A stretch of DNA of 64,000 bases from Heterodontus francisci (lineage: Eukaryota). How positions within the stretch are numbered: the first letter of the stretch is position 1; each line of letters starts with the position of its first letter. The stretch lies in assembly GCF_036365525.1 (NCBI RefSeq), contig NC_090388.1, positions 31,037,518 to 31,101,517 on the forward strand, read 5' to 3'. The translations under genes and the position numbers were made by a program. Below are positions 27,431-55,900 of this stretch, in pieces. The notes under the pieces were generated by a model that saw only the letters and a list, made by a program, of their open reading frames with translations, was not told the DNA's origin and made no database searches.

Positions 27431-27434
27431 AGAT

Positions 27435-27870
27435 AGAAACTGCTGGAAATTACAGGTCAGGCAGCATCTGTGGAAAGAGAAATAGAGTTAACATATCAGG
27501 TCCATGACCTTTTGTCAGAACTGGAATAAGTTAGAGATATAACAGTTTTCAAGGAAGTAGAGGGGCAGGGAAAGGGAGGAGGGGATAAGAACGAAAGGAG
27601 TCTGAGATAGCTTAGCAGGTAGGAGCGATTAAATGACAAAAGGAATGATAGTGCAAGGGAAAGACAGTGGTAATGGGGCAAGTAAAGAAACAAAAGATGG
27701 GTCCAGAGGAGCTGTAAATGGCAACAACAGAACCATTAGCAGCACCTGCAGTTTGAAAAATGGGAGCAATGGTTATGACCTGAAAGTATTGAAGGTTGTA
27801 AAGTGCCTAATTGAAAGATGAGATGCTGTTCCTCAAGCCTTTGTTGAGCTTCATTGGAACAGTGTATGAA
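27435..27870 (-). mobile_element. Penelope-like terminal repeat fragment with degenerate hammerhead motif
   Basis: Shares GCAGCATCTGTGGA.AGAGAAA.AGAGTTAAC...GACCT with copies at 29072, 32161, 51528 and 53575. Confidence 0.65.
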
Positions 27871-29071
27871 TGATTATTTGCAAGATGCATTGGTCCCTCT
27901 GCGCATGCACACCCTGTTTGGGACTGTACATGTGCACTCGATCGGTCGCTTTCCTGCATGCGCCCTGTCTTTGGAGTGCTGACTGGAGAGCAAACCAGAA
28001 GTGGGGCCTGACTGCCAAAATACGTTGGTTCCCCAGCCTGGTGCCTGAAGCAAATGTGGATCCTAGGCCTCGCTTGGTAGGCAAAAAGAACCAGGAACTA
28101 CTGACAAGTGGCCTATAAGCAGCAGCAGCTGTGTACTTCCAGGCTCGGCAAGGCAAGGTAACAAGCTCAGGAACAACATGCTTAGCAGACTCCAGAAACA
28201 GGAGATAGGAAATGGAGACTGCCTGCCAAAGCACGTTGTTGCCGTTCCCAAGTCTGTTATGTTGCCTTGCTGAGTTTGGAGGCAGGCAGCTGCTGCTGAA
28301 GCTGGTATGGTATTATTGTTCATGCTGCTGTCCAGAGAGCAATAATGCACTCAGACATTTAATGATGTTTTGTGCTGCTTATCAGGCTACTTGTAAGTCA
28401 TTCCTGGTTTTTGCTGTCTACCAAGCAAGGCCTCAGATCCATATTTATGAGTTCTCTAATAATGATTAGTGGCTGTCCTCTTTTTGCCGGGTGTGGGAGA
28501 TGAGAGGGGGAGATAAACAATGTCTTTTGAGATTGATGTAGCTCCAGTATGACTGGCGATGAAAGTTTAGGACCACCTCTACACTGAGCGGTGGACTCAG
28601 TAATATAGTACCTAGGCAATCAGGGGCTGAAATGAATGGGGGAAAAGTCATGTGCTGGAAAGCACAGAGGCAGAAAACTCCAGCCATGGTGTTCAAATTG
28701 ATACCATCAAATCAGGTGACCAGCCCTGATGTAATGAGAAGTATGGAACAACTTGCCAGGAGCAGCACCATGCATAGATGCAAATGAGGTGCTAGCGTAG
28801 TGAAGCTACAGCAAAGAACTACATGTATGCTGACTTATAGAATTTTACAGCACCGCAGGAGGCCACACTTGTGCCAGCTCTTTAAAACAGCTATTCAATT
28901 TAGATAACAGAGGATATTACAAAGCTAACTACAGATCCACTTTGTGCATTCTACCATATCACTGTTCTCACGTGATTTGCTTTTTCCTCAGTCATCACAA
29001 TATCACTGTGAGCTCTGAAACCTGTTTGCCTGTCTAACCGGATCAAATTACACATTGTGGAGAATATTGAA

Positions 29072-29170
29072 ATAAAAACAGAAAGTGCTGGAAATACTCA
29101 GCAGGTCTGGCAGCATCTGTGGAGAGAGAAACAGAATTAACATTTCAGGTCAATGACCTTTCACCAGAAC
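29072..29170 (-). mobile_element. Short Penelope-like terminal repeat copy
   Basis: Flanked by the 14-bp direct repeat TGGAGAATATTGAA (29058-29071, 29171-29184). Confidence 0.75.
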
Positions 29171-29554
29171 TGGAGAATATTGAATTACTCTACATCAGGC
29201 AGGATCAAATTACACATTTCAGAATAACTGTTGTCCTCCAAGGGAACCAATCAGAAATCTTGTCCAACCCACTTCTGTTGCAAATAAACGCTGCTATTGG
29301 AGATTGAGAACAGACAGGACATGGGGTGGTGAGTTAAAATAGCAAGCTGGAATCTCAGGGCTATGCTTGCAGATTGATCTGCAGTTGACGTTGCTATTCG
29401 TTCATTCGCAACTTGTCCGAGTCAGAGGAAATAATGCAGTCTAGAGCCAGTATGGCCCCAGTATCAGTATTGTTGACCCTTTTCCTCTGTAGGGTATCAA
29501 CTGACGTGATGGATAAAGATACACTGTAAACCAAAGTCCAATATAACTTCACTT

Positions 29555-29866
29555 TTATTTTTTTATTTAGAGATACAGCACTGAAACAGGCCCTTCGGCC
29601 CACCGAGTCTGTGCCGACCATCAATCACCCATTTATACTAATCCTACAACATCCCCACCTGTGCCTCTATTCCCCTACCACCTACCTATACTAGGGGCAA
29701 TTTACCTATCAACCTGCAAGTCTTTTGGTGGTAGGTGGAAACCGGAGTACCCGGCGAAAACCCACGCAGACACAGGGAGAACTTGCAAACTCCACACAGG
29801 CAGTGCCCAGAATTGAACCGGGGTTGCTGGAGCTGTGAGGCTGTGGTGCTAACCACTGTGCCGCCC
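29555..29866 (-). mobile_element. HE1-like V-SINE
   Basis: Same family as 14384-14729. Confidence 0.9.
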
Positions 29867-32160
29867 TACTAAAATCACTTATAACATACAAGTGCTTGAT
29901 TACTTCTCAAACTTAGCGTCTATTTTACTCTGCTTAATTACTACTGATTACAATAAATCACAAGACTCACGACTTGGACTTAAATACTACCCGTGAGAGG
30001 CGAACTGGCCAGGCTCCTTCCATGCGGTCATCGTCTTCTCTGAGTATCGAACTCAGGTCTTCCTTCGCGATGTTGATCCCAGATTGTCGCTCCCGAGGCT
30101 TCGGACCCTCCTATTTTTATGTTTTTCAAGAAGTTTACATCACCCAGGACCCTCATGATCCTGAGATCATCTGTCCAAATGTCTCATAAACAGGACACAT
30201 TGTTCCCTTATGCATTCTTGATATAGCATCCTTGATAACCACAAAGATTAGTGACCCTTGATGCCTAGGGTCGCTCAGTTAGCAGTCTAGTTTTGCTTCC
30301 TTCTTCAGAACAGATCGACCTTCACAAAATCACAACCTCAGCTCTTTTCCTTTTGCAAGTGTGGTGTTTGTGTGAGGTTGGCTTATTTTCCCATTATGCT
30401 TTGTGGAGACTTGACATTAGCCTCTGCTGTCTACAGTATCCCTGAGTGATGCTACAATGGATGCCAGAGTCCTGCATGGAGAACTCAGCGGCAGCATCCA
30501 TTGAGACAACCTCACATTCCATGGTTGACTGCAGAGCATCAAAACCATGTGCAAGAACCCCACACAAGTTATAGTGGACTTTTTCACATGTTGCAGAAGT
30601 TCTATCGTAAGCAATACAATGCATTCAGCAATTGTTGCTGCACGGAAAGTTTTTAAAAAAAGTCTGCATCTCTGCCCTCTTTAACAGAACTAGGATGTGA
30701 CGTGATGGAATATAGGTATAATAGGCTTAATTAGGTAGCATTTACATATAGTTAATATATTATACCTTTTAGAATTAAAGATTGAATAAATGGTCAGTTT
30801 TTAAGACTCACTGACATTCCCCTTCAAGAACAGGGAGTTAAGAAATTTCAAGGTCCCTGTTAGAATAAAATTTCTGTTATCACGGACTTGGAAGATAAAC
30901 ACACACATTGAAATATCCTGTGTGTCATCAGTCAGAGGTAGCAATAAATTTAATTTGTTTATGGGGTTGTTGATGCAGACATATTGGCTCAAAAGGTTGC
31001 TTTAAGGTACCATAAAAAGGCAATTATAGATAATAAAACAATAAATGGAATGGACTTACAGGAACAAGAGAGCAAGTAAACATAATCCAAAACATTTTGA
31101 TCAGATAAATGCTCACAACTTCAAGAGCAGGGAATTTCCAACAAAACATTAAGTGGATTTTGAAAGCAGGAAAAACACACACAGAAAGGTAATACCTATA
31201 TGCTAAGAGGTCATATGATACCTTAGCAACAGTATAAACATGAGAGGTTCTGAAGCGAAAAATTAGAAGTGTTGAATTCCTCAAACAATACTTCTCACCC
31301 CATGGTTTACTTGGGGGATTTAAGGTAAAAGTTAACTTTAAATTTTGATGGATATTCTAAGATATTTTCCTGTAACATTAGCTGGGTTAAACTTTTGTAT
31401 TCTATGTTAGAAATAAGATTATGTGTTACATCTCTTAGTAATATTTGATATTGTGATATACTTATCCACTAAAAAGTGTAAATTCTTTAATAAATATATA
31501 AAAGTTAATAAATCATCTCATAGTATTCTGTATGCAACTACAAGAATCCCCTCTCTGTGCCTCTTTAAGTGGAGAGTTTCCCAGACCCTTATAATATCTG
31601 GGATATTTATGACTTATCCATAATTATTAAAAATAGGCTATTTGAAAGATGGTATTATTCTGTTAGTTTTCTTTCTTTGAGTGAAAACTAGTTCAATTCT
31701 TTGGACCTAAATAAGTGTCAATAAGAGTTTGTCTGGTTTGAACTTAATTAAAGGAGATTCATAGGGATGTATGCCTGATTTGGTTTTGTCCCTATAAGGG
31801 GTTGAAATCATAAATCACTTCAGTGAGTTATCTTGGAAGTGAGCAAATGTGGAACAAGGGCGCAGAGACTAAGAATTATCACTGGAAGAACCCAGGGGAA
31901 GGGATAAAGAAAGTCCTTGAACTAAGACTTATTTCACACAGGATGCTTCACAACAAGTAACTATTGAGATAGAGGCTGTTTCAAAAGGACCAATATAAAA
32001 GGATCAGGTGGCTGGGGTGGGGTTATAGGAGAGACCACCTATGACTGGGGAACCTGACTGTACCTTGTGTAGTTCAAGGGGATTCTGAAATAGTTTCAGG
32101 GTGACCATCAGCAGATTATAGGATTACTAAGTAGGAAATCAGGGGAAACACCTATTGCTA

Positions 32161-32426
32161 TAATAAAAGCAAAATACTGTGGATGCTGGAAATTTGAAAT
32201 AAAAACAAGAAAATCTGGAAATACTCAGCAGGTCTGGCAGAATCTGTGGAAAGAGAAGCAGAGTTAACGTTTCGGGTCAGTGACCCTTCTTCGGAACGAG
32301 CAAATATTAGAAATGTCAAAGGTTATAAGCAAGTGAGGCGGGGGTGGGGCAAGAGATAACAAAGGAGGTGTAGATTGGACAAGGCCACATAGCTGACCAA
32401 AAGGTCATGGAGCAAAGGCAAACAAA
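32161..32426 (-). mobile_element. Penelope-like terminal repeat insertion with hammerhead motif, 17-bp TSD
   Basis: TSD GGAAACACCTATTGCTA at 32144-32160 and 32427-32443. Confidence 0.8.
32262..32297 (-). ncRNA. Minimal type I hammerhead ribozyme motif (core variant CCGAAGA)
   Basis: GTT CCGAAGA A GGGTC-ACT-GACCC GAAAC GTT AAC. Confidence 0.6.
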
Positions 32427-32462
32427 GGAAACACCTATTGCTACCAGTTACATATAGTCTAT

Positions 32463-34168
32463 TCTTTCTTTTTTCTTTTGTGCCTCCTTATCTCGAGAGA
32501 CAATGGATACGCGCCTGGAGGTGGTCAGTGGTTTGTGAAGCAGCGCCTGGAGTGGCTATAAAGGCCAATTCTGGAGTGACAGGCTCTTCCACAGGTGCTG
32601 CAGAGAAATTTGTTTGTTGGGGCTGTTGCACAGTTGGCTCTCCCCTTGCGCCTCTGTCTTTTTTCCTGCCAACTACTAAGTCTCTTCGACTTGCCACAAT
32701 TTAGCCCTGTCTTTATGGCTGCCCGCCAGCTCTGGCGAATGCTGGCAACTGACTCCCACGACTTGTGATCAATGTCACACGATTTCATGTCGCGTTTGCA
32801 GACGTCTTTATAACGGAGACATGGACGGCCGGTGGGTCTGATACCAGTGGCGAGCTCGCTGTACAATGTGTCTTTGGGGATCCTGCCATCTTCCATGCGG
32901 CTCACATGGCCAAGCCATCTCAAGCGCCGCTGACTCAGTAGTGTGTATAAGCTGGGGATGTTGGCCGCTTCAAGGACTTCTGTGTTGGAGATATAGTCCT
33001 GCCACCTGATGCCAAGTATTCTCCGAAGGCAGCGAAGATGGAATGAATTGAGACGTCGCTCTTGGCTGGCATACGTTGTCCAGGCCTCGCTGCCGTAGAG
33101 CAAGGTACTGAGGACACAGGCCTGATACACTCGGACTTTTGTGTTCCGTGCCAGTGCGCCATTTTCCCACACTCTCTTGGCCAGTCTGAACATAGCAGTG
33201 GAAGCCTTACCCATGCGCTTGTTGATTTCTGCATCTAGAGACAGGTTACTGGTGATAGTTGAGCCTAGGTAGGTGAACTCTTGAACCACTTCCAGAGCGT
33301 GGTCGCCAATATTGATGGATGGAGCATTTCTGACATCCTGCCCCATGATGTTCGTTTTCTTGAGGCTGATGGTTAGGCCAAATTCATTGCAGGCAGACGC
33401 AAACCTGTCGATGAGACTCTGCAGGCATTCTTCAGTGTGAGATGTTAAAGCAGCATCGTCAGCAAAGAGGAGTTCTCTGATGAGGACTTTCCGTACTTTG
33501 GACTTCGCTCTTAGACGGGCAAGGTTGAACAACCTGCCCCCTGATCTTGTGTGGAGGAAAATTCCTTCTTCAGAGGATTTGAACGCATGTGAAAGCAGCA
33601 GGGAGAAGAAAATCCCAAAAAGTGTGGGTGCGAGAACACAGCCCTGTTTCACACCACTCAGGATAGGAAAGGGCTCTGATGAGGAGCCACCATGTTGAAT
33701 TGTGCCTTTCATATTGTCATGGAATGAGGTGATGATACTTAGTAGCTTTGGTGGACATCCGATCTTTTCTAGTAGTCTGAAGAGACCACGTCTGCTGACG
33801 AGGTCAAAGGCTTTGGTGAGATCAATGAAAGCAATGTAGAGGGGCATCTGTTGTTCACGGCATTTCTCCTGTATCTGACGAAGGGAGAACAGCATGTCAA
33901 TAGTCGATCTCTCTGCACGAAAGCCACACTGTGCCTCAGGGTAGACGCGCTCGGCCAGCTTCTGGAGCCTGTTCAGAGCGACTCGAGCAAAGACTTTCCC
34001 CACTATGCTGAGCAGGGAGATTCCACGGTAGTTGTTGCAGTCACCGCGGTCACCTTTGTTTTTATAGAGGGTGATGATGTTGGCATCGCGCATGTCCTGG
34101 GGTACTGCTCCCTCGTCCCAGCACAGGCATAGCAGTTCATGTAGTGCTGAGAGTATAGCAGTATAGAG
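32463..34168 (-). mobile_element. Young 5'-truncated RTE-clade LINE with uninterrupted RT ORF
   Basis: 522-aa ORF 32525..34093 (NYRGISLL, QCGFR, FIDLTKAFD, GVKQGCVLAP, LFADD, C-terminal CSTCGRACHSRIGLYSH); 10-bp TSD TATAGTCTAT at 32453-32462 and 34169-34178. Confidence 0.95.
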
Positions 34169-34239
34169 TATAGTCTATATCAGTGAGTTATTGCATTACT
34201 GCTGGTTATGATGGAAATCTGAGTGTTACCAATGTTACT

Positions 34240-34739: not shown

Positions 34740-34926
34740 ATGGCAGGATGGTGCAACTTCATTGTCCTGGAAGGTTACATTTTACCGCCAAAAGACAAAG
34801 TAGCGGAGGAAGGCTTGGATACAGAGGACGAGGACGAAGTGCCGCAGTTTCTGGACCTCAAGGATATGATTAGTGTGTCTGACGGTGCAAGCTCTATCAA
34901 AGCCTCTTCTGTGGCGCGACGGTTCG
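34740..34926 (+). CDS. HELB: HELB first coding exon
   Basis: MAGW...[10 protein letters not shown]...EDEDE.PQFLD resembles the HELB N-terminus; donor GTAAAA; 187 nt, phase 1. Confidence 0.88.
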
Positions 34927-37900
34927 GTAAAAGATAAAGGAATTTCATTTTGCAATACATTCAATGCCCGAGGCGTGAGCAATCCAGCAAAACCTTTAGT
35001 TTCCTTACTGGCTGAAGGGGTCCACACTTGTCGTGGAGTGAGTCTTGTGTATCACATGCTCAAGCAAAATACTGTGGATGCTGGAAATCGGAAATAGAAA
35101 TTGAAAATGCTGCAAATACTCAGCAGGCCCCCGAGGAGAGTTATCGTTTCATTTCTGTGACCTAAAGATGCTACCAGACCTGCTGACTGCCGAGTATTTC
35201 TAGCACTTTCTGTTTCTTTAACTGAATTTTTCACTTTTAATTACAATTGTAACAAAGAGCAAAGTAAATAGGTCATATAAATGAGATTAAGGTCAAAGCT
35301 GAAATATCAAACATTAAAAAGTATATTAAAATATGAATTTTATCGATGGAGAAATCCAACATTCTACAAACATAAGATTAATTTTTGAGGCACAGTGAGG
35401 CTGTTCAGCAGTAATGAATTATTAATGAATTATTCAAACTGATGTCAGGAAAGGGAAAAACCACATCATGGATTCGCTAGATCTTTGGGGGCAGCTTTCT
35501 TCAAGGTCAGTGGCCATTGAGGTATTCTCACAGATAGCAAACCAGGAAGTAAAATGCACTGATGCTCCTTAACTTTTAAATAAATTTTACAGAGTGAAAT
35601 GATTGGGACATCACGTGGGATTAAGGTAGAAGCTGAAACATCATAAAAGCTTTTAAAGAAAAGTATTTTAAAAATATGCATTTTTTAATGTAATGCAGAT
35701 ATTTGACATTCCACAGCTACAAAATTAGTTTTTCAGAGACTGTTCAGTAATTCTGAGCTTAGTATGCCTTTATAAACCCGGTTACACTTTATTCAATGGT
35801 GTGTAACCTTTTCAAGGGTTTTTACAGTGAGAAAATAGCGTAAAACGGTCAGTTCAGTGATTTCTACCTTATTGCATTGTCGGGGCACCTCAACAGCGCA
35901 CCTTCTGGCGAAGCGTAAAATCACTGACAGCAACTTCTGGATTTCCATGTTTAACCGTGCATGTGCGGACTTCAGATGTTGCTGATAGTTTCAAAGGAGT
36001 AATGATGATTGCTGACAATTTCGCCATCACTACTACTGCAAAAATTGTCAATTTAACTGGCTACCTACCTGATGATATTGTTGCTGGACACCTGAAAATC
36101 CCTTTGATTCAGAGGAGTAATGTTAGCCCAAACTGACCGTTCTGCCGTCAGTACCACTGCAAGATCTAGGCAATTGTATAGGAGCTAATAACTTCAAGCT
36201 AGTTACATCACTAAGACAAAAGCACAATGCTGGAAATCTGAAATAAAAACAGGAAATGCTAGAAACACGCAGCATCTGTGGAGAGCGAAACATTTAATGC
36301 TTCAGCTTAATGACTACTGTCTAGTGATGCAAAATGCTGAAGCTCCTTAATTGATGAAGATAATCACAAGTTAACTACAGAACAAGACTGAAACGCAAAT
36401 GGGGTTATGGTACATAGCAGAGACAATTAGAACAGAAAAAATGAAAACATAATGCAAGTGTTAAAACTTGGAGGAAGGGACACCCTTCATTCATTTCACC
36501 ATAGTGATTGTGCCCGTGAGTGAAGAAGATCGATTGACCTCTTAGTTCATCCCTCCAGAAAATGTACAATTTCCCTAATCACAGCAACATTTAAGACACT
36601 TTGATACTTGGGCTTAAGCGAGGTACCTCGGGTACTGCTTTAAATTTGCAATTTTTGATTTTGAATGATGATGGGAGCCGATAGTCTTCATTGTAAATAG
36701 CCCACTAGCTCTGCTCGGGTGGCATGTGAACCATGACCACTTTGGAAAGATATGGGATGGTTGCCAGTGCCCATAGGACTATACTTCAGCACGAGTCATT
36801 GACCTGGAATATCCTCCATGGGTGCAACCAGGAAGTTAGGCCTGAAAATGCATCCGTTCCTGTGCCCATTCTGCAGACGTCAAGTAACACTCAAATTTCC
36901 TCTGAGTTTCATTAGAATACGCCTGAATGTAAAATGGACAGAAATCGGCATAAATAATCAGGGCCCAATGAATGCACCAAATAAATATCTTTAAGTATGA
37001 AGACTAAAATTTCAACTCATTTAAACATCATTCGTGCATATTAGGCACAGCATGTTTAACAACCTGCAATCGGGGAATCTTTTCAGTTTTTAATGTGACT
37101 TATATGTGTGACATAAAAATGGATTTATAGAAACTGAAAATACAGTGTCAGTTTCAGTGAGGATACTGCTAATAAGAAACAGTCAAATGCATTCAATAAA
37201 ACACCAGAAAAATAACAGTTTCCTGCTTTGTCCAAAAACCTGATTGTAATTTGAAAGCCCCTAAGCAAGCGCAATTGCAGGAAACATGCTTAATAACTGT
37301 GCAACCTGGAGGTGGGGCTATTATGAGTGAAGAGATTGATTGACAATTAAGAATTATTGGACATTTTGTACTTGCTCATGTACCTCAAGCTCAAAATTTT
37401 GCATTCTTTTGGACTGCATACTGGATTAATGCCCAGATTGTATGTGTCTCTGGGCGCAAATTTGTAGGAAATTCCATACTAACATTTCCAGGAAAGAGGA
37501 AAAACTGGGTAGGGAAAAAATTCTTATCAAAGAAGTCTTATTTGGACCACTGTTAACAAGTAGTTGAATATGCCATATGATGAATCCTTTTTTTAAAAAC
37601 ACTTCTCATTTCCTCAATGCATTCTATTGATAAAGTGGTCATATGAGAACATCATCGGGTGGAAGTGTATTTAGCAGATGCATACCTACTTTTTAATGTA
37701 AACCTTTGAAAGTTACCAGTTAGACTTCACATATCTGTATTTATCTTTCTCCAGTTACAATCGAAGACCTTGTCTCCAATTTAACTTACAAGGTGTACGG
37801 ACAGTTTCATTTTACTGATCCTTGGTGGAAAGTGACTGCAAAGATTGTGTACAAACAGAAGAAATGGTATTTACAGTGGTATCCATCTTACAGTCTGAGG

Positions 37901-40900
37901 AGGCAGCTGGGCGATCAGAGAAAGGAAATTTTCAGCCTGTTCCTAACAGCATGTGGCGTCCATGAGCAACATATACAATTCTTTATTGATTCTTTGTCGG
38001 AGAATAGTAACCTTGAGTTTTCAAACTTATTGATGACTTTACAATGGATTGCAATTGAGAAGAAGGATACGGAAGAAAAAGGTTTTGCAGAAAGCATTAT
38101 TAAAGCCATAAGCTGTTCGGGTAAGCTTAGGTATTTCTTTTTGGATTATAGGTTTTGCTCCTTTATTGAAAGTTTGTATATGATCATTAATGATCAGTAG
38201 CATAAGATATCTTTGATCAGCAGCTGCAAGAGTAAGGTAAAAGGAAATGAAAGTTGCTGTAATTTGTCCTATTAAATTGCAACGGAAGTAAATCTGTCAC
38301 ATTACATCAGATGTGAATATAGAAAGAAATATTGATCTTTGGGCTCTTTTAGAAAAGTTGTACAAAAGCTTATTGCAAGAAGTTGAAGAATGACAAAGTA
38401 AATATTTGCGTAAAGTTACAGGCTATTTCAGCAATGACAGAACCATCAGATGTATTGTGAAAGTAAAATGAACGCTTGGAAAATGAAGCATTTTGAAGAC
38501 CAATATTCCAAATTCACTAAACAGTCTCTTTTAATTAATACTCATTAATGCAGATTTTCAGAAGTCCACAGTTTTCCCAATAAATCAGTTCCAGTGGCAG
38601 CAATTATAATTTCCATTTGCTCTCTTTTTACCCAAAGTAAAGATGTCATTATTTAAATCCTGTTTTGTATGGTTTGAGTGACTTTATCTTAGCTATTTGA
38701 TTCACAAATTTAAATTAGAATGATTGATGTATAGTGTACAATATCTCCCTGCAGTGTTCAGAAATCACCCTGTAGGAGGCTTACAGTCTTAATGAGTCAG
38801 TTCATGAATATCTAATAATACAAACTACTATTAGAACATTTTTTTTAAATCTGTCTAATGTGGATAGTAACTAGATCCGAACTGAATGTATCTTTCATGA
38901 TCCTGTATGCTGAACAGCTATGTAAGTTCAAAAGGAGGAAATAATAGAATTCATATTTAGAGTCATGGAGTTATACAGCATGGAAACAGGTCCTTCGGCC
39001 CATCGTGTCCATGCCGGCCATCAAACACCTATCTATTCTAATCCCATTTTCTAGCACTTGGCCCGTAGCCTTGTATGCTATGGCGTTTCAAGTGCTTATC
39101 TAAATACTACTTAAGTGTTTCTGTCTAATGAGTGTGAAGCGAGGCTTTTATTGCTATCTTACATATGGATTATTTTTATAGCATTAATGTTTCAGATTAC
39201 AACCAAAAAAAATTGAGCTGGAAACAGTGGGGATAGATCATTTTTATTTCGCAGGCATTTATAAAATGATTTAAAAATTGGAATCGTAAACCCCTAAAGT
39301 GCATCTTCTTCAAGTTGACACAGTGTGGCTTATTAGTAGTTGATGGGTTGTATGATATGCTACTCTATTTCTATTCAATGAAGATGTCATTATTTAGTCT
39401 TACTATAAAATCTCAAGTAGCGTTAGTCTTGTTTCATACAAAAGCACAGCTCCTGTCAACCAGTCCAATGTTTCCTAATGTCACTTGTGTAGAACACACA
39501 GTTTCTTTGCTGAAGAGGCAATTGGATAGTAAAAGGTAGTGCAAAGGATTCTTTTAAAGGAGAGGCTATTAGAATGTAAGTAACAAAGTGTAGGCGTATG
39601 TTAGAACGTTAGTTGTAATTTTAAATTTCAAGTGTATAAGAAAACCAGGAAACTGAACTTGTGGAATTTTACAGGCTAGGTACTGTAATTTTTTTTTCCC
39701 AACATTAAAGTAATTTTTGCCATCTTCACTCTCTCCACAGTCACCTAGCCTCGTGGGTAAATTCATGGTGTGGTGTGACACCAAACACTCTGGCTCAGGT
39801 TTAATCTCTGCTTTGTGCTCGGTTAGACAATTTCAGCCAGGATGCAAGGAGAGTTAAAACATAAGAACATTGGAGCAGAAGTAGGTGATTCAGCCCGTTG
39901 AGCATGCTCCGCCATTTAATTAGATCATGGTTGATCATCTACCTCAATGCCACTTTCCTGTGCTATCCCCATATCCCTTGATATCATTAGTATCCAGATA
40001 TCTATCGGTTTCTGTTTTGAACATGCTCAATGATTGAGTTTCCACAGCCCTCTGGGGTAAAGAATTCCAAATATTCACCACCCTCTGAGTGAAGAAATTC
40101 CTCCTCATCTCAGTCTTAAATGGCCTGCTCCTTATTCTGAGACTATGTCCCTTGGTTCTAGACTCACCAGGTAGAGGAAACATCCTATTTACATCTATCC
40201 TGTCATGCCCTGTAAAAACGTTGTAAATTTCAATGAAATCACTTCTCATTCTTCAAAACTCTACAATCTCTCCTCATAAGACAATCCTGCCATCCCAGGG
40301 GTTAGTCTGGTGAACCGCTGTTCCACTCCATCTAAGTCATCCTTCTTTAGATGAGGGTTGCTATTGGTCTCAGCATCCCTGGGATGGAGAGGAGAAAATA
40401 ATCAGGAATCCAATTCATAGTTATTGTCTAGTACTCCCTGCCGGAATTACATGTTTTAAAATCCTGGTTGAAGCCATAATGATGAGAAACGTTTTTGTTT
40501 ACATCAGCCATTATCTCATAGAATGGTAGAAGAGGCTTGAGGGACTGAATGGCCTACTCCTATTCTTATGTTCCGAGAGGGTTTTGAGGCTGTGGAATGC
40601 ACTACCAAAGACCATAACATTTAAGATTAGATTTGTGTGTTGAAGGAAAAGGTAATAAAGAAATTTGGGAACTGAATGGTCATTGCTTGTGTGGAAGATA
40701 ACAGCAACTTGCATATATACAGTGATTTTAACATAGAAAAATATTCGAGGGCGCTTCACAGAAGTGTAATCAGAAAAAGAAAGTTATTTTAGAAATGGAC
40801 TAGGGCAATCCTTAAAGGAATTATCCTGTTAGTGTTAATCTGAGTGTTAAATGGATGCATGTGTATAAGTATCTGTACAAAATACTGCATAAGATTCAAG

Positions 40901-43900: not shown

Positions 43901-46900
43901 CCAGAGTTACAAAAGCATGCTTTGGTCATTTATGATAAACTCAAACAAACTTGCTGGAGTAAGGGACACACCTATGTTAATGTTGATGAGCTGACTGAAT
44001 TACGTCCATCTGAGTTCAGTGTTGAAAGTGCATGGGAATCTCTAAAATTTTTAAAGGACTACAAGATTATCGTAATAGAAAACAAGCGAGTGTATCTCAC
44101 ACATTTCTACAACTGTGAGAAAGAAATTGCGTCTTGTATAGCGGAACTTGTGGAGAAACCTCCATGGCGCATTTCTGTGGAGGAAGTTCTGAGAAAAGCC
44201 AGCACTCCAATTCCGAAGGAAAGATTATCTGAGTATACAGAGCACAGTGAAGGTGTTGATTTGGACCCAGATCAGTTGAAAGCTGCTGCCATGATGTGTG
44301 TAAATCCTGTTACGGTCATTAGTGGTAAAGGCGGCTGTGGAAAGACCACGCTTGTCAGCCTTATCTTCAAGGCAGTAGTTGAAAATATGGAGAGTGCGGA
44401 AAATGAGGAACTGTTGCAAGCATGTCGAGATCTTGAGCGGGATCAGTCGGCTCCTGAAAGTTGGGATATTCCAGCAGGTAAAGCTTCCAAAGTTGCCTCT
44501 GTTGAAAAAGGTGAAGTCAGAAAAGCATCTGTGCTGTTCACTGCACCAACTGGAAAAGCAGCATCTCTTTTAAAGAAAAAAACTGGATTTGGTGCTTATA
44601 CTTTACACCAGGTAATTAGGATACAGTTATAGATAGTTCAAATCTTTTCTTTGTGTTTTAGCATGAAGTGAACAGATGACCTTTCAGAGGATTCCTAAAG
44701 CACTTTTCCTGTTATCGTGTTGGAGGCTAAATTTTTTAAAAGGAATATATTACTCCAGGCACTATGTAAAAGTCAATGATTTGTTGATCAGTTTCTCCAA
44801 CATTTTTCAAAAATAACTAAAGTATATTAATAATGTCGATTTTCAGATTTGGCATTAGGCAATATATTAAGACTAATCAACTTTGGTTACTCTGGCTGAT
44901 TTTACAGAATCAACTTAATTTATGCAGTAGGGTTGAGAAATTGCATGTAAGTCGCCTTTACAGGTTGCTGACATGGCGTGCTGGAATCTATTTGCATATG
45001 GGGATAAAAATCTTGCTTGTAATTACAATGGCTGCTAACATTTTTAATGTATATTTTAACTTCGGCAAAGGTGGCTTGGGTGAAAAGAAATGGCTGGCAA
45101 AGCCCTGTGGCTGACAAGAAATTCAGATGATGGCTAAGTGATGAAATGGGGCATTATTCCAACCCCTGCTTGATGGCTGGAAAAGTGGAAATGGTGAAGA
45201 ATGAGGTGATAGCAAGGAAGGTTTGCCGCTAGTAATCCAGATGCCTACAATAATGCTCTGGGGACATGGGTTCAAATCCCACCTTGGCAGGTGGTGAAAT
45301 TTGAATTAATTTAATAAATCTGTAATTTAAAGCTATTCTAATGGTGACCATGAAACCATTGTCGATTGTTGTAAAAATCCATCTGGTTTTAGGCCCTTTA
45401 GGGAAGGAAATCTGCCGTCCTTACCTGGTCTCGCCAACATGTCGCTCCAGACCCACAGCAATGTGGTAGACTCTTAAACCTCAGAAATAGCCTCACAGGC
45501 CACTCAGTATTAAACTGCTACAAAGTGTAAGAAAAGGCATGAAACTGGATGGACCACCTGGCATTGACCTAGGCACTGGAAACGACAACGGCAAACCCAG
45601 CCCTGTCAACCCTGCAAGGTCCTCCTTACTAACATCTGGGAGCTTGTGCCAAAATTGGGAGAGCTGTCCCACAGACTAGTCAGGCAATAGCCTGACATAG
45701 TCATACTCATGGAATCATACTTTACAGACATCAAGGCAGCATTTGACCGATTATGCCATCAAGGAGCCCTAGCAAAATTGAAGTCCATGGGAATCGGGGG
45801 GGAAAACTCTCCAGTGGTTGGAGTCATACATAGCACAAAGGAAGATGGTTGTGTTTGTTGGAGGTCAATCATCTCAGTTCCAGGACATCACTGCAGGAGT
45901 TCCTCAGGGTATTGTTCTAGGCCCAACCATCTTCAGCTGCTTCATCAATGACCCTCCCTCCGCCATAAAGTTAGAAGTGGGGATGTTTGCTGATGATTAT
46001 GCAATGTTCAGCACCATTCACGACTCCTCACATACTGACGCAGCCCATGTCCATATGCAGCAAGACCTGTACAACATCCAGGCTTGGGCTGATTAGTGGC
46101 AAGTAGGATTTGTGCCACACAAGTGCAAGGCAGTGACCATCTCAAACAAGAGAGAATCTAACCATCTCTCCTTGATGTTAAATGAAATTACCATCACTGA
46201 ATCCCCCACTATCACCATTCTGGGGGCAGGGAGGGGGGGGGGTCACCATTGACCAGAAACTGAACTGGACGAGTCATATAAATGCTGTGGCTACAAGAGC
46301 AGGTCAGAGGCTGGGAATTCTGTGGCGAGTAACTCATCTCCTGTCTCCCCAATGTGTGTCCGCCATCTGCAAGTCATAAGTCAGGAATGTGATGGAATAC
46401 TCTCCACTTGCCTGGGTGGGTGCAGCTCCAACAACACTCAAGAAGCTCGACACCATCCAGGACAAAGCAACCCGCTTGATTGGCACCCCATGCACAAACA
46501 TTCATTCCCTCCACCACCGACGCTCAGTAGCAGCAGTGTGTACCATTTACAAGATGCGCTGCAGCAGCTCACTTAGGCAACTCAGGCATCACCTTCCAAA
46601 CCCACGATCTCTACCACCTAGAAGGACAAGGGCAGCAGATACATGGGAACACCACTGCCTGCAAGTTCCCCTCCAAGCCACACACTATCCTGACTTGGAA
46701 CTATATCACTGTTCCTTCAGTGTCGCTGGGTCAAATCCTGGAATTCCCTTCCTAACAGCACTGTGGGTGTACCTACCCCACATGGACTGTAGCAGTTCAA
46801 GAAGGCAGCTCACCACCACCTTCTGGAGGGCAATTAGGAACGGGCAATAAATGCTGGCCTAGCCAGTGAAGCCCACATCCCATGAAACGAATATAAAAAA

Positions 46901-49900
46901 AAAATTCTTGTCCAAAATCTGTTTCACTATACTGTTGAAAAGTTTGTTTGGTTGTAGGCTGGAGAGGAACCATTCAAACTCAAACAATGTTGTGTGATTA
47001 GTTCAGTTTTATACCTGACTGGTAATTCCTTTTTAAATTTTTTTTTAAAGTGGTTTGATATCCCAAATATAAGACCCGCTCTTCTGAGATATGAAAAGAG
47101 CAGTTCTGTTTAAATTAAAGTATTAATTTGAGACAGTCTCAGCAAAAGAACTGGTCAGTTTGAAACTGTCAAGCAATCATTTAAATTTAGAGGGGTTGAG
47201 GGGCAGTGGGGAAGAAATTAATCGCCAGTATTTTGCAAAACTGTTGGCGTTCATTACTCCTCTGAAACTGAAATCCTCAGGAGTCCGGACATGCACAGTT
47301 AAAAATGGAAATCCAGAGGCTGCTGTCAGTGATTTCACGCTTCCCAATATTGTGCACTGTTGGAAGTTCCCCCAAATTGGAATCATTAGAAATTACTGAA
47401 CTGACCAGAACATTTCCTGTTATTATTAGTTTTGCTGTAAAAACCCTTGAAGTTGCACCTTGGTGAATGAAGTATAACTGGGTTTTTAACTAAGTGCCAA
47501 CCAGGTCAACTGACCAATCGAGCTTCACAATTGCTCTCTCTCTTCTTTAGATATGACTTCTTTCTATGAGGACGTAGTACGATCAACTGGGATGGGAGGA
47601 GTAACACTCTCTAAATAGGATTATTAATTTAAAATTATTCCAGACCTATTCTGCTTAATATCTAAACCAATATATTAAAAGCCCTATAAGTCTGATTCCC
47701 AATTTTAAATTCTACTTTAATCTTAGCAACACATTTCTCAAATTTCGCAGTACCACCCCATAAGAAATCATCACCCTGAATTATGAAGATGCCTGAAAAG
47801 TTTCCTTTATGATACTGATTAAAAAAATTGCGGGATCGGCTTTTAGTTGAACACAACCTATTTTCAGCAAAACAGATCTCTCTGAAAAATACCACACCCT
47901 GGAAGTATCATTCAGGCCATGGATGCTTTTGTTTAGTTTCCATACTTTCCCTCTGCATCTGTTACCTATTTCGGAGGTTTCAGAAACATGTCTCTCTGAA
48001 AAGTATTGCCCTGCAGAAATGTGGTTTTAAAGTCAATTGAATGACACATTCATATTCATGTGACCAAAAGAGGTGTGGGAGAGTCCACTTTAACCTCTGT
48101 ATCACCCTTTCGGTCCTCCAATTCCCTCACAGCTAGCCTCGCTTTAGCCTTTTAAGTCCAATCTACAAGAACCTTTTCAGTACAAATCCACCTATGTGAC
48201 AAAGCTGGTTGCCTTGTCTAGTACTTCAGAATAAACTCCAAATACTGTCGAACTATCTAATTCCCTTTGTTTTGCCTTTCCTATTAGATTATCCTCAAGT
48301 TTATTGGCAGCCACCAAAACTTCATGATCATGAGGACTTCTTCTAGTTCTGTCCTGAGACTGTTATGTGGCTTTTATTTCATTGTCTAATCTATCCAAGT
48401 TTCGACCTTACTTGCATTTTTATGTTTTTCTGGACCACTACTGCGAGGTCTTCCACTTGCATGATTGCAGGGTCTTTCTCTGGTACATCGTTTTCTGATG
48501 CAAGAGTCAGTTCTGGACCCACTATCAATACATGCACTGTGCTTTCTTATTCTCCATTCTTTCACCCCATTCTGCCAGTCCATGGACCTCGCTTCTTGGC
48601 CGTCATCCTGAACATCCAACCAATATTTAAACTTGGCAGTAATAAAAATAGAAAGTGCTGTAAATACTCAACAGGTTTGGCAGCATCTGTGGAGAGGGAA
48701 GCACAGTTAATGTTTCAGGTCTGTGACCTTTTAAACTTGGCAGTATATTTTCCTGCACATCCCATAATTGTCACATCCTTCCATTCATTAGACTCCTCTG
48801 GAATATATACCATTCCTTTACCCACGCTGGGCAATTGGCCTTTGGCTGTGATAGCTCTGTCGTGTGTCATGATCATTGATATTACCATGATCACTCATTA
48901 CCCTTGAACCCTTGATCTACCATATTCTGTTCCTCAGGACCTTCATCACAATACACATGAGCATTTGAGGGATAAGTTGCCTCATTTACTTCTATCAACT
49001 GCTCAGAGTCTGAGATTTTGGAATTAATTCTGATTAAACATGAGGAATGAACCTTAACAGTTTGATAAGTACTGTAATACCATCATAACCTATTACCTTA
49101 CCAGGGCCTTTCCATTCCCTATGACTTTTTTATAATAACACCAAATATCCTGAATTAAATTCTCTCAGATGGTCTTATACGATGCCTCAGTGGTGTCCGA
49201 ATTTTCTCTGAGACCTCAGCCTTGATGAAAGCCTGTCTCCCTACATGTAAAACATTTATTTACAGAGTTACACATTACAAGCTTGCGCCTCCTAACCCCA
49301 GTTTCAGTCTGTGTTTATCTATAATCAAAGATTATCGTGGGTAGATGGGAGTGTGGAATTCGAGACAGAAGCAGATCAGCCATGATATTATTGAATGGTG
49401 GAGCAGGCTCGATGGGCTGAATGGCCTACTTCTGCTCCTAACTCGTATGATATAGGGACACAGAATCCCCAGTTAGTTCCCACCCCCTGCATGTAATTAA
49501 ACACAATTAATATTGTTCAAACTGTTTATCCTGCTTGATGACATTATTGTTGCTGGATGTCTTGAGATCGCCTTGATGGTGCCAGATTCAAACTAATGTT
49601 GGGAAAGGGAAGTCTAATCTTTGTGGGCAGCTTTCTTAAGGTCAGTGGTGAGCTTCTTCACTTCACGGCTGCCCGCAAAATCTGGGCTTATTGTTAGACC
49701 GACTGCTCCAGTCAAAGCCCTCAATCAAAATATGCGATTCTGATTGTGGTAGGAGAAACGCACTGAAAATTCAATGCCATCCCTCCACAGATCTCCTAAT
49801 ATATCATTTTAAACTTGCCAAATTATACTACCCATTAACCCCTGAATGAGGCTAACCAACCCAGGTGTCTTTAAATCAACAAATTAACTGTTTAAGAATT

Positions 49901-52900
49901 TAGTTTTTCTAATTAAACACTACTAAGACATAAACAACATTAAAAATAGAAAAAATTAGAGTCCTTGCAAATTTACAGACCAATGTTGCTTGAAGTCCTC
50001 ACAGTCCGCCGATGGGGGAAAAGGTTCTTCAACAGTAGAGCAGTCTGTAGTCTAATTCCAGCAGTAAGTGATGCTTTCCTTCTGCAGTGATGAATTTCAA
50101 CAATTAACGACTTGCAAACACTTTTTAAATGAATCAATTTAGCTTTAGAATTTTTGAGGGACAAGAGATTGTCAAGGTCTAACTTCCCTTCCTTCAGTTT
50201 AAGTTAGCTGAGAGCTCTCCTTTCCGGTGCTAACACAGAGCTGTCTGTCTGTATTGTCTGTTAGAACAGACTGTTTGCATTATAAGCCAGTTCAAAATTG
50301 AATTGTAACAAAAGTATCTCTTGATGCTCAGTCCGAGTGGCTGTATCCAAGACAACAAGAATGCACCCTTTGAATTGCAGTCTCTGAATGGCTGTTTGCA
50401 AGGCAACATGAATGCATTCTTTGACTCAGTCTTACAGCAATACAGCTCTTTTTCCAGTCTTAAAGACACACCGCATTCTTCCCGGAAAAAAAAACTACAG
50501 GATCATAAAACTATAAAGAAAAAAGCATATACAAAACATAAAAGTTATTTACAAATGTTTACCTTAGTACTTAGTGTTGTGATCCTTTGTATTATTTTCT
50601 CCACTTAAAAGTGTTAGATAATGGACTTTCTACCTTAAATGTATGACTAGTTGTTACTTAGTCCCTTGTTTTCTTTTGTTAAATTTGCTTCATGGTTTTA
50701 AACTTAAAATGTAGTATGAAACTCTGATGCTTATCAAAGATGAGAGATTAACAGACAAAGCTTTCTATTTCATTATTCCTGACATGTTACAAAGCTTACC
50801 TAGTTATCAAGGCTGAATAGACACTTTTGACAGTATAGGGAGTTGGGATCATGAAAGTGATGCAAGATATGAGAGCTAAAATGAATGAGAGGTAGAAAGG
50901 ACCTCAAATCATACCCTAAACTTTCAGAATAATCTGTGTTTTTCATTGTTTCCTCTTCAATTTTAAGGTCTTGCTCTCCTTTAGGATTAAAAATGAACAC
51001 ATAGAATTGCAATAAAATTATTAGAAAAGAATACAGGATATATTGTAATCAGCAAAATGTTGTTGCAGACTGGTGAGTTTTTCTTCATTTGCGTTTGATT
51101 AGTAAATATAACTTCGGACTTTTTGTAGGATTTGAACATTGCTTAGGGAGAAAAATGCAGATTAAAATTTTGAATCCTTTCCAGATAAAGAACATTTGAA
51201 TTATTTTTTTTTAAATAGGTGATATGGAATTTCTTTTCTACCAAGAAAGCTAAGGTGTTAGGAGCACTCGACGATTGGATGTTTTCTGATGTCCAGGTTC
51301 TGATTGTTGATGAGGGCAGTTTGGTCTCTGTGCAGGTCCTAAGTACAGTTTTAAAGTTGCTTATGGAACATGCCAATCTCAAAAAGCTTATAATCCTTGG
51401 TAAGTGTCTGCTGATAGTTTTGCATGTTTTCGGAAGACATTACTATCGTTAACATGCATTCCAAAATACTATTTTCTTCAGTTTTCTCTGCATGCAAAGC
51501 AAGATAGACAGACAGATTATAGAGTACCTTCTTCAGAACTGCTCTGAAGAAGAGTCACTGACCTGAAACGTTAACTCTGCTTCTCTCTCCACAGATGCTG
51601 CCAGACCTGCTGAGTATTTCCAGCATTTCTTGTTTTTATTTCAGATTTCCAGCATCCACAGTATTTTGCTTTTAGATTATAGAGTACAGTTACTAATGGT
51701 GTCAAGTAAACCTAAAATTTATATGGTTTCAAATTTAATGCTACTATTAACTAGCATTTAAACAAATAATTTGCTGAATGTGAATTAATGAACATTTCCA
51801 GAAATGACCCATTAACACCACATATTTAATAAATCATTATCGTTGAGCGTACATGTATTCGATTTTTGTTTTCGTATGCCTGTGCAGTACTATAATGTAG
51901 ACTTTAATCAGTCTCTAGCTGCGACTGCTTTCCGACCGCTAGTACTACTTCCTGTATCAGAGGTCTCCAACCTCTTGGAGCATTGCGGCACGTAGTGACA
52001 TCCATATCTGATTAAATTGCCTTTGAGTCAGGCAGAATCATGATTAATGTCATGGCCATTCTCAGTCTATTTCTTGGAATCCTTGGATAGTTATTTATAC
52101 CTCTTTCATCCATCCATCTCCTCCTTTCCCCTCTGCATCACTTTTGTCAGCTTCTCCTTCTGTTTTTGTTCCCTTTTGTACTCTTAAGTACTTCTCCCTC
52201 TTTTTGTCTCTGCAGTTATGGGTAGAAAGAGACAGCAGCAATGGGGCTCAAATGAATGGATGGTTAGAGCAAGGGTCTCAAACTTATTTTAAATGGTGGG
52301 CCTGATCCCACATCTTAGCAGTTGACGTGGGTCACATTCTGCAAAATTTATTCGAAATACTCGGTAGAAATTTGTAGCATTTCACCCATTTTGTGCCATA
52401 AAACCAGGTGGCTGAGGGATATATACCAATTACTGGGTGCAAGGTCCTGCAACTTTGGCCGCATGGTGGTTGTCATATTAGTCCGATTTTAGGCATCCCG
52501 GGCAGCTGCTTGAAATCAGTGTTTGATTAATTTAAATATGCAAAAGAGGATCGTCTGCCTGTTTCTGGACCCTTCTGCAAAATGCGTGAAAAACTACGTT
52601 GAACATGCACAACACTAGCTCCGACTAGCTTTTAAAGAACTACATGGCCTGAACAGAGACCCTTACAGGCATTGCTGAAGGCTGACAAAGAAATGGCAAG
52701 AAAAGAGTGCCTCACCCAACTCCACAGCACGATTATGGGCTGCTGTCGGTCGTGCTCAGCTCTCCTGTCTACTTACCAGTGATGTAGCATGCCCAAACAT
52801 TGGCCAAGCTGCCTCTGGATTTGCAACAGGTGCCAGTAGTTCACCTCTTATTAAAATGAGACTGGATACCCAATTTTGGCTGAACCTTGGGGCCCCGGCT

Positions 52901-55900
52901 ACAAATTCTGCAAGATCCTGAGTGAGGAGCCAACAGTTGAGACTGGGTGTCAAGCCGGGGGATTGTTTGTGGTGTGTGTTGCCCTGAGAGGAACTGAAGG
53001 AATATAGCTGTTGCTGATGGCAGTGCCATGCACTGTTTCCCCCCTCAGCCCGATGTGAACGGTAGCAGTTGGAGCTTGCGATGCGCCCACAGTAAGGTCC
53101 CCAGATTTCACTCACTGTTTACTCGTTGCTCCTCTCTCTGAACCACTCCCACTAACCATGCTGCTGCTTCCACCTCTGCAGAAAATGATGGGACTCATTC
53201 CCCAGCCCTTTCTTCACCCTCCGCCCAAGGCACAATCCCTCTTTCTACCATAGCATATCTCTCTGACGATCCTCATTCCCCTAATACCATTTCACTCTTT
53301 TCCCCCTGTCTCAATTCCCAAATAAACCCCACCCCAACCATGGGCCCAATTCCCTGACTATCCAACCAGGATCCCTCAACCCCAATCATCCGACACCCTA
53401 AGACCCTGCACCCCGCCTCAAAATTGTTGCTGTATGACAGCAGCCTGAATGCTCTCCCAATTTTCCTTCCTCCTGTCCTGCTCACACAGAGAATGAAAAA
53501 TAAAAAACATTTGATGACCAATTAGTGCATGGCTGATGTGGGAGCTAGCATGGGATGAGCAAGTTTTGATATACAAACAGAAAATGCTTGAAATACTCAG
53601 CCGGTCTGGCAGCATTGGGAGAGAGAAACAGCGTTAACATTTCAGATCGATGACCTTTCATCAGAACTAGTTAATTTCTGTCTCCACAGATGTTGCCAGA
53701 CCTGCAGAGTATTTACAGCATTTTTGTTTTTATTTCAGATTTCCAGTACCTGCAGTATTTTGCTTTTGTAAGTTATGACATGCTCTGTCACTGCACATTG
53801 TTTGGTCATCCCTGCAGTTGAACGGCCTCTGCACATGCACTGTTTCTAATTTTGTGAAGTTTATAAAATTATTTCTTTTATTTCTTCTAGGCGATGTTAG
53901 ACAGTTACCGAGTATCGAACCTGGCAACATGTTAAATGACGTATACTCCATTTTATACCGAATTAAATGGAGCATTGAACTTGCAACCAATCATCGTGCA
54001 GAGAGTCAGCTGATAATAGATAACGCTGCTAAGTATGTTTTTTTTTCCTTCTTCGGACCTATAGTTACCCACTCACATGCATGAGCACAAAGTGAAATGG
54101 TTTTCCTGTATTTTTTTTCTTAATCACTGCAAACTTCACACGGTATCTTCATTCTCCTCTTAGTGGAATTTGATGAATTTTGGATGATCTGTCCTAAAAA
54201 GCAGGCTCAAGAATCCTGACTAGCCTGTGTTTGCTCCAAAATGTTTTTGCCACTTGCAATTGGATCTTCTGTTCTTATTTTGGCAACTTTGTAATTTGTT
54301 TATTACACTTTTGCTGCTGCATTGCTAGCTTATTTGGGTTTCTTTTGCATCATTGGTCACTTTTTCCTCCTTTTTTGTATAGATTATTGATTAGTACTCA
54401 CTTTGTTTCTGCATGGGCTGCAAACAATGGAAAGGGCTTGGCTACTGGCCTATATGCCAGGGAAAATTAAAGCCATGTAAATATTACTGGTCCTACTGTA
54501 ACTCAAAATTATCTTCCTGCCTCTGCAGTGAGGTGTCCTTTTAATAGCACTAATCAAGCTGCCTGTCTGACTGGACATGTTCCACTCTGTCCTGCTAACT
54601 CAAAGCTTTGTGCAAGTCAGGGCGGGTACTGATTGCAACTGCTACCCACAAGTCACTGACTTTAGAAGGTAAATTGTAAAACAGTGGGGGACTAGGTAGG
54701 TGAGAGGGAAAAAGTAGTTTTTGAAATAATGCTCAAAAGACTTGCTTTCATAGCATCTGAATTTCTTTTGATGTAACCATTTCATTTTTCATGAATTTTA
54801 TTTCTCAGGATTGCTGAGATGGGATTGAAGTCTACTTATAAAGAGTTGCAATATGATGCAGTGATGTACATATCAAAGGGTGTAGATGTCACAGTTCCAA
54901 CGTCTGATAAAAAATTCATTCTTGTTTCTCTACCCCCCAAATATAGCCCCGTTGGTGAGTATGAAAACCGTTCATGTTGATTTATTACTTTGAGCTTGCT
55001 ATCGGAAAGGGATGTTTTACATTAGCTATTAGCCAGAGGTAGCATTTGAACTTGTAATGGCTGTCGCTGACTCTTGATTTTAACTTCCTTGTGCACTCCT
55101 GTGGAAGATGGACAAGTAAAATGTATAAAATTGAAATCTCCATCCACTTTTTGCCAACTGTTCCCATTATAAGTTCCTATGTCCACATTTATAATGGAAA
55201 CTTCCTTTGTAAACTTCTCATGCTGTAAATACACCCTCTCCCTCATCGGGACTGAATTATATCTGTGTGCCCTGGTCCAATTATACCCTGGCCTCTAACC
55301 TTGCTTCATCTGAAAAATATACTTGGTCTTTACTCCCCATGTGCAATGAATGCACAGTTTCTACATCTTGAGGGAATTAAGATCGACTAGTATACATTTG
55401 ACTGTTTATGATGGCTGAATACAAATGAATGCTTTTGAGCAGGCGGGTCTTCTAAAGGTCGTAACTGGGAGTTTGGAATCGGGCATAATATTGCATGTGT
55501 TGGATGCAGATTTGCATTGAGGACCACTGCTAACAAGAATGAAGGACTGCACTGAGCTGATTAAATAGCATAAAGGAATATCCTCACAAAGATTAAATCA
55601 ATTCAAAATGCACAGAATCTTCTTTGTTACTTCAGGTTTGATTGTGATGTTTTGGAGTATGATGATAACTGTGAATTCTTTTTGTCATTGGCAGATCTTC
55701 AAGAAGCTATCAGTTGTTTACTAAAAAAGGCCCCAGGCCTGGACAATGATGTGACATCACAGTTCATTGCATTTAGACGGTAACTATATTTTTAAGAAAG
55801 TTGGTAATGGAGTGCAAAGTACAGTATTTTTCCCTAAGGTGCCACTGCACAAAAAAAGCAGGAAGGAGGAAAGAAATAAAAGGTATGAGCATTTTTGCCA

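Follow-up and report, generated by a model that had tools for sequence, protein, structure and literature searches.

The window analysed here is a stretch of 64,000 nucleotides of the shark Heterodontus francisci (contig NC_090388.1, positions 31,037,518 to 31,101,517). An all-against-all BLAST of the window gave eight loci which share one unit, a minimal type I hammerhead motif followed by a tail (c27, c29, c32, c35, c36, c48, c51 and c53, see Table 1). A preliminary description of this DNA had listed five of them, whose coordinates and strands we confirmed, and had placed partial copies near 35060, 36215 and 48640, which belong to the same family. We propose that these repeats are the 5'-truncated, dead-on-arrival 3' ends (pseudo-long terminal repeats, or pLTRs) of an endonuclease-bearing (EN+) Penelope-like element (PLE) of the Neptune type of cartilaginous fish, and we give this reading a probability of about 0.88.

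The repeat unit and its insertions

The assignment is carried by c27, the longest copy. The end of a GIY-YIG open reading frame (ORF) lies upstream of its hammerhead on the same strand, with the stop 255 nt before the hammerhead core. Read from c27, the order of the parts in the source element is: GIY-YIG end, stop, 3' untranslated region (UTR) of ~255 nt, minimal hammerhead, the word CAG/ATG, 15 codons and an optional tail of ~30 nt. One of the two origins offered in the preliminary description, ribozyme-bearing Penelope termini, is supported by this copy; as the hammerhead and the GIY-YIG ORF end stand together in c27, a Neptune-type clade can be named more precisely.

A 30-residue query taken from c27 retrieved four proteins (P0002-P0005) out of 1.8 billion (phmmer, E 4e-4 to 1e-3), all four labelled Rhincodon typus (whale shark). 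The c27 fragment aligns with the extreme C-terminus of the whale-shark relatives, and tblastn of relatives gave E 7e-10 for P0005 and E 1e-4 for P0024. A search seeded with one whale-shark protein kept 34 proteins from 105 candidates; six of them have PF26215, and one of these six also has the reverse transcriptase (RT) domain PF00078. When six relatives were scanned with Pfam, P0024 passed the GIY-YIG cut-off, P0028 and P0037 matched GIY-YIG below the cut-off, P0019 (which overlaps P0003) matched RT below the cut-off, and two had no relevant match. The linker CX2-5CxxC is present before GIY-YIG in the whale-shark relatives, in a region which is absent from the window. In P0033, a whale-shark gene model, the Neptune linker runs into post-hammerhead sequence (E 2e-5), a second hint that the ORF and the repeat are parts of one element.

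The c27 GIY-YIG fragment by itself has no Pfam match, and the window contains no PLE RT. The 26-codon frame after CAG/ATG (P0001) has no Pfam match and another frame is open as well, so that it is a candidate ORF start only. DNA-pattern scans of viral and metagenome contigs gave 0 matches, protein-pattern searches of metagenome and viral contigs for a PLE locus matched 86, 9 and 21 stretches of which 0 were confirmed, and word-index searches for longer protein relatives gave nothing. A PDB sequence search with P0024 returned weak, unrelated matches only. In the ESM Atlas the 30-aa fragment matched a GIY-YIG cluster (0.81) and P0003 had no named match; we treat these as leads only.

The target duplications of 14-17 bp which had been announced are real: they are exact, of 14, 17, 16 and 14 bp, at four of the eight loci tested (c29, c32, c48 and c51), while none of 1500 random window pairs reaches 14, and the inserts between them measure 99, 266, 88 and 146 bp. 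Inverted 5' arms are found at three of the eight loci (c35, c51 and c53). The 3' ends fall into two groups ~30-34 nt apart, 15 and 26 codons past CAG/ATG: the short end is that of c27, c29, c48 and the main arm of c53, the long one that of c32, c35, c36, c51 and the inverted arm of c53, so that the tail is present on one arm only of c53. The edge of helix I is the start of three of the eight loci (c29, the inverted piece of c51, and c53). Between c27 and the other copies, the hammerhead-plus-tail part is ~75-79% alike and the upstream part has no significant likeness.

Some observations lie beside this anatomy. The start of the tail (window 51605-51665) is an imperfect repeat of an 11-nt word also present ~30 nt upstream, and this repeated word may mark the two RT start sites. 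The copy c29 sits within an older stretch of ~30 bp bounded by an exact 17-bp duplication (29040-29056 and 29202-29218); the piece inside the duplication has no second copy in the window.

Table 1. Features of the window (positions are those of the 64,000-nucleotide stretch)
Feature	Position	Strand	Remarks
c27, longest copy, ~440 bp	27429..27873	-	GIY-YIG C-terminus, stop, pyrimidine-rich 3' UTR, decayed hammerhead, tail-less 3' end; target duplication looked for, none found
c27 GIY-YIG ORF end	27781..27873	-	last ~28 codons, then frameshift; phmmer, tblastn
c27 likely original stop of the ORF	27773-27775	-	reading in shifted frame
c27 branch-point-like word and CAG	27530-27534 and 27521-27523		5' edge of hammerhead
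c27 hammerhead motif	27486..27522	-	two core changes (G8, A14)
c29, 99-bp insert	29072..29170	-	from 5' edge of helix I; short 3' end; A6 core change
c29 target duplication, 14 bp	29058-29071 and 29171-29184
c32, 266-bp insert	32161..32426	-	~130 nt of 3' UTR, full tail
c32 hammerhead (U4C)	32262-32298	-	predicted cut between 32266 and 32265
c32 target duplication, 17 bp	32144-32160 and 32427-32443
c35, degenerate, tailed	35061..35215	-	internal deletion; no target duplication found
c35 inverted 5' arm	35166-35215	+
c36, degenerate	36227..36315	-	most of hammerhead gone; no duplication found
c48, 88-bp insert	48642..48729	-	cut off within first core box; short 3' end
c48 target duplication, 16 bp	48626-48641 and 48730-48745
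c51, 146-bp insert	51528..51673	+	core intact, helices broken, full tail
c51 inverted 5' piece, 14 nt	51528-51541		terminates at helix I edge
c51 CAG/ATG	51592-51597
c51 26-codon open frame	51595-51672
c51 target duplication, 14 bp	51514-51527 and 51674-51687
c53, head-to-head fold-back	53565..53767	-	no clear duplication
c53 main arm	53565-53670	-	without tail
c53 hammerhead	53632-53668		predicted cut between 53636 and 53635
c53 inverted arm	53676-53767	+	with tail, without hammerhead
LINE piece, read as RTE type	32461-34174	-	549-codon open RT frame; A-rich tail just outside c32
RecD2-like helicase exons	37755-54010	+	NCBIfam TIGR01448 match
Broken frames, LTR-retrotransposon pol-like	61850-63700	-	3 pieces scanned, no Pfam match

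The hammerhead motif

The family pattern has the layout of a minimal type I hammerhead: the core boxes, helices I and II, and a self-complementary helix III. It has no loop III, which is a feature of the canonical type I hammerhead. By hammerhead numbering, cleavage after GUU is the correct prediction. The motif is far above chance. A pattern of stem II and helix III with at most 3 mismatches has 7 matches where 1.15 are expected, and none of 100 shuffles reaches 7; a minimal-hammerhead descriptor with 2 core mismatches allowed has 4 matches, each of them in a family copy, where a shuffled window gives 0.08 (12 shuffles). An Rfam scan up to E=1 gave no match.

The single copies are far from this pattern. 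An exact CTGANGA had been attributed to all five listed copies but is found in only two of them (c51 and c53). The core changes are U4C in c32, A6G in c29, and G8A together with A14U in c27; in c51 the core is intact, but helix II has an A-C mismatch and helix I is broken. The full minimal-hammerhead descriptor is passed by c53 only, the four other listed copies failing singly. The claim of a palindromic stem III holds for two of the five copies, c32 and c51, which keep ACGT, and does not hold for the other three, c53 included, which read ATGT; helix III of c53 is the weaker U-G form, with a self-duplex of -0.6 versus -4.9 kcal/mol. The folding energies are weak and no better than those of shuffles (z from -1.5 to +2.0).

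Stem II had been described as covarying, an argument which fails on the window copies. All that is left of the signal is a single pair, 10.1-11.1 (G-C versus A-U), with one double-changed cell, and 316 of 500 shuffles match or exceed it in a test of 9 pairs over the five window sequences only. The A-U form of this pair is found in c27, c29, c48 and c53 and the G form in c32 and c51; such a split by copy group is best read as a single inherited change of a subfamily. The pairing register scores 88.9%, versus at most 42.2% for slid registers, the structure itself having been read from these same sequences. Neither is the core better conserved than its surroundings: letters differing from the majority make up 4/44 in the core and 6/80 in the next 20 positions of the 3' flank (four copies). 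A core kept no better than the 3' flank is expected of copies which decay neutrally, and there is no sign of selection acting on the window copies. Several of the changes (U4, 11.1, 15.2) fall at CpG sites. Five sequences are too few for inference on the source elements.

Copies in public sequencing runs and the surroundings of the repeats

We aligned four public sequencing runs to c32, which serves as the reference for all of them; the numbers of placed sequences are not copy numbers. The DNA run X1, which may be of the same origin as the window, gave 50,703 contigs, X5 gave 5,251 contigs, X9 (another species label) 5,482, and X22 (another sample) 10,971 reads. X5 and X9 are contigs of presumed RNA runs, and contigs cannot reveal RNA starts. 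There are very many copies in these runs.

The family has two sharp edges. At the 3' edge (32165), 1,059 contigs of X1 have long unrelated loose ends. At the 5' edge (32297), long unrelated flanks are found in 404 contigs of X1, 51 of X5 and 66 of X9, and in 1,212 reads of X22. The latter edge precedes the predicted cut by ~32 nt. The letters at 32298-32299 are private to c32, for which reason the real boundary probably lies 1-3 nt farther in the 5' direction, where helix I starts. No loose ends occur at the predicted cut of c32 among the 24 rows listed (there are 852 further rows). The depth of X1 upstream of the 5' edge is ~1/5 to 1/4 of that of the core. At 32425, loose ends which are short and agree among themselves (47 contigs, agreement 0.84) give shared sequence beyond the 5' end of c32, which means that c32 is a truncated fragment of a longer element.

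Head-to-tail joints of ~110-133 nt are found in 6, 3 and 1 contigs of X1 among the joints listed (15 of 33). There is no splice joint among these, and the sequence contains two acceptor-like sites. A dip in the depth of X5 at 32305-32369 was considered as a skipped intron and rejected: it is not seen in X9 and no splice joint was listed for it. At U4, the share of T in the depth is 36% for X1, 31% for X5 and 15% for X9, figures which are biased towards the reference; this suggests that the C4 form is common in the genome. Contigs of the A-U type probably lose their ends when aligned to c32, a reference of the G-C type, which makes the runs unsuitable for a covariation test. Several contigs of X1 link the edge of helix I to a point just past the hammerhead (32251-32297) through 1-3 extra letters, like the fold-back junction of c53.

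The window is vertebrate-like DNA (GC 35-50%, CpG observed/expected 0.33), rich in fragments of long interspersed elements (LINEs). Its + strand has a gene for a RecD2-like helicase, which we take to be HELB. The exons lie near 37.7, 43.8, 51.3 and 53.9 kb (NCBIfam TIGR01448, E 3e-23). The introns of this gene contain c48, c51 and c53, with c51 ~130 nt downstream of one exon and c53 ~115 nt upstream of the next, and both c51 and c53 put the acceptor-like CAG/ATG on the sense strand of the helicase; the first four loci may fall outside the gene. In seven of the eight loci the main arm and the helicase gene are on opposite strands, the arm being on the - strand; these numbers are too small to claim a bias. 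The LINE piece beside c32, which we read as belonging to the RTE clade and which looks young, was rejected as a partner of the repeats (32525-34174): its own A-rich tail lies outside the 17-bp duplication of c32. The window has no tRNA, hence no tRNA-derived head of a short interspersed element (SINE), and no tandem repeat or array of the unit was found in it.

Origin and mobilisation of the repeats

The Neptune EN+ PLEs (PMC8557442) share with the shark family a C-terminal GIY-YIG, a hammerhead close to the 3' end, extensive truncation at the 5' end, an inverted 5' arm, an optional tail of 30-40 nt and target duplications, and relatives carry the linker CX2-5CxxC; as a difference, neither a (TA)n target nor a full-length copy was seen in the shark family. 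Hammerheads are reported in fish Neptune, Poseidon and Xena elements (PMC4209133). With the minimal hammerheads of metazoan PLEs described there, the shark motif has in common the core boxes, one extra base before a 5-bp helix II, a helix I of 3-4 bp, the palindromic 15.2-16.2, the lack of loop III, U-rich flanks, mostly solo copies, and a U at position 17, common in the alignment of that paper; it differs by the A10.1-U11.1 type beside the usual G-C, and by the U4C form of c32, maybe common in the genome. Poseidon PAc of Anolis carolinensis (PMC11167929) likewise has two 3' ends separated by a tail, for which two internal RT start sites account, a pLTR overlapping an ATG, and insert ends away from the ribozyme cut, but it belongs to a different clade and its ATG is in stem II, whereas the candidate ATG of the shark lies 22 nt past the cut site. 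In the rotifer Penelope (PMC3846280), the pLTR contains the first 12 codons, or 22 with the tail, and a 31-bp tail is found on one inverted pLTR; its duplications are of 8-10 bp, versus 14-17 bp in the shark copies.

We suggest a scheme of mobilisation which starts from the order of the parts, the truncation, the duplications, the inverted arms, the two 3' ends and the 5' edge, as observed, and takes its other steps from other PLEs. The GIY-YIG endonuclease would nick AT-rich DNA, and the RT would prime at the target, beginning at either of two internal sites ~30 nt apart, which would give tail-less or tailed 3' ends. It would then copy backwards and in most cases end prematurely, very often where helix I begins on its 5' side; an occasional fold-back during copying would leave an inverted 5' arm, and a staggered cleavage of the second strand would create the duplications. 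In intact tandem source elements, the hammerhead would on balance cut after GUU only as a dimer, through the palindromic helix III, or with the aid of the protein of the element, and the cut would process tandem transcripts. In PMC4209133 a monomer is not cleaved and dimers are cleaved at a low level; in PMC11167929 cleavage is assisted by protein and dispensable for insertion. The hammerhead did not set the 5' ends of the inserts: these retain the whole motif and begin ~32 nt upstream of the cut, so that uncleaved RNA served as the template. The solo copies of the window are decaying and almost certainly inactive.

Several points weigh against this proposal. The ORF and the hammerhead are linked in a single copy, c27, which has no target duplication, and in the one gene-model hint. 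The upstream regions of c27 and c32 align weakly (score 79, shuffles having a mean of 64 and a maximum of 88), and hence it is not established that the two copies share one UTR. The clade is likely to be Neptune, but it is assigned by linker motifs in relatives from another shark, and Nematis shares the linker. No full-length element and no hammerhead-linked RT was found in viral and metagenome contigs. Finally, the sharp 5' edge (404 contigs of X1) exceeds what random truncation would give. This edge is the sole unexplained feature of the family; the duplications, the inverted arms and the two 3' ends are published marks of PLEs, and the minimal hammerhead is expected of them.

The stop at helix I may be caused by a transcription start, by a 3' splice site, or by a short non-autonomous master. 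The edge reads as what we take to be an initiator-like word, and also as a 3' splice site; the branch-point-like word and the CAG of c27 may form such a site. An intron of the Penelope of D. virilis ends at helix I (PMC4209133). Most short copies could stem, not from random truncation, but from a dedicated ~135-nt non-autonomous RNA which runs from the helix I edge to the tail, has its 5' end set at this edge by transcription start or splicing, and is mobilised like a SINE by the Neptune protein in trans; this would be compatible with the origin proposed above. The sharp edge at 32297-32299, which has long flanks of unrelated sequence in each of the four runs, the window loci which begin there and the low depth upstream of it in X1 are all consistent with such an RNA. 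However, the G-C type comprises the long c32 and the short c51, and the A-U type the long c27 and the short c29 and c53; because long and short copies occur in both sequence types, a recurrent RNA end seems favoured over a short master. No splice joint is among the 15 joints listed, and clipping at the private letters of c32 may contribute to the pile-up. We consider a dedicated short RNA unlikely. We are equally doubtful of the broader proposal that the mobilised RNA of the family starts, by transcription or splicing, at the 5' boundary of the family's own hammerhead and not at the cut, forming a recurring SINE-like mini-PLE of ~135 nt, moved in trans, with at least two sequence types, in two species, and with an abundant U4C type.

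The motif could also be a vestige or a chance look-alike, non-cleaving even in the source element and kept as a protein-binding or promoter sequence. The lack of a covariation signal, the core kept no better than its 3' flank and the weak folds would all fit; besides, ~2/3 of the depth of X1 at U4 is not T (a reference-biased figure), U4C reduces hammerhead activity in vitro (PMC3088659), and 8 of 9 predicted Xenopus dimers were uncleaved (bioRxiv 10.64898/2026.07.22.740005). Yet position and layout fit the published minimal hammerhead of PLEs far above chance, the hammerhead-plus-tail part is alike between c27 and the other copies where the upstream part is not, and the minimal PLE hammerhead of Anolis cleaves after the element protein is added (PMC11167929), which makes a vestige improbable. 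As for the second origin named in the preliminary description, a non-LTR retrozyme whose tandem units are cut by the hammerhead, circularised and reinserted, we find it hardly credible. Animal retrozymes (PMC7229834; bioRxiv 10.64898/2026.07.22.740005) resemble the family in being short and AT-rich, with a type I hammerhead, long target duplications and PLE ancestry; the latter source proposes that they derive from PLE pLTRs and places them in one chondrichthyan, and the few head-to-tail joints of X1 would suit them. But they form tandem arrays, have canonical hammerheads (PMC7229834) and produce circular RNAs, while the shark copies are solo and 5'-truncated, with a minimal PLE-type motif, and one of them carries coding sequence. 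Head-to-tail contigs number 10 of 50,703 among the joints listed, and the inserts have constant ends, the tail on one side and the helix I edge on the other, which are neither permuted nor at the cut site. The family shows those features of EN+ PLEs which could be tested and lacks two tested features of retrozymes, the tandem units and the canonical hammerhead with loop III.

Neither a PLE hammerhead of sharks nor a 5' edge at helix I is described in the literature searched, Repbase, Dfam and subscription papers not being covered, so that the family may already be catalogued. Our reading identifies this shark repeat, which is very abundant, as a terminal piece of a Neptune-type PLE; this has mostly annotation value, and it extends the known PLE hammerhead to cartilaginous fish, as far as this literature goes. 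The role of the hammerhead in PLEs is treated as an open question in PMC8557442 and PMC11167929. A 5' boundary which hundreds of contigs place at one point ahead of the cut is in keeping with the result in Anolis that uncleaved RNA is the template (PMC11167929). If the mobilised RNA does begin at the hammerhead edge, these copies would constitute a very large natural record for probing the purpose of the PLE hammerhead.

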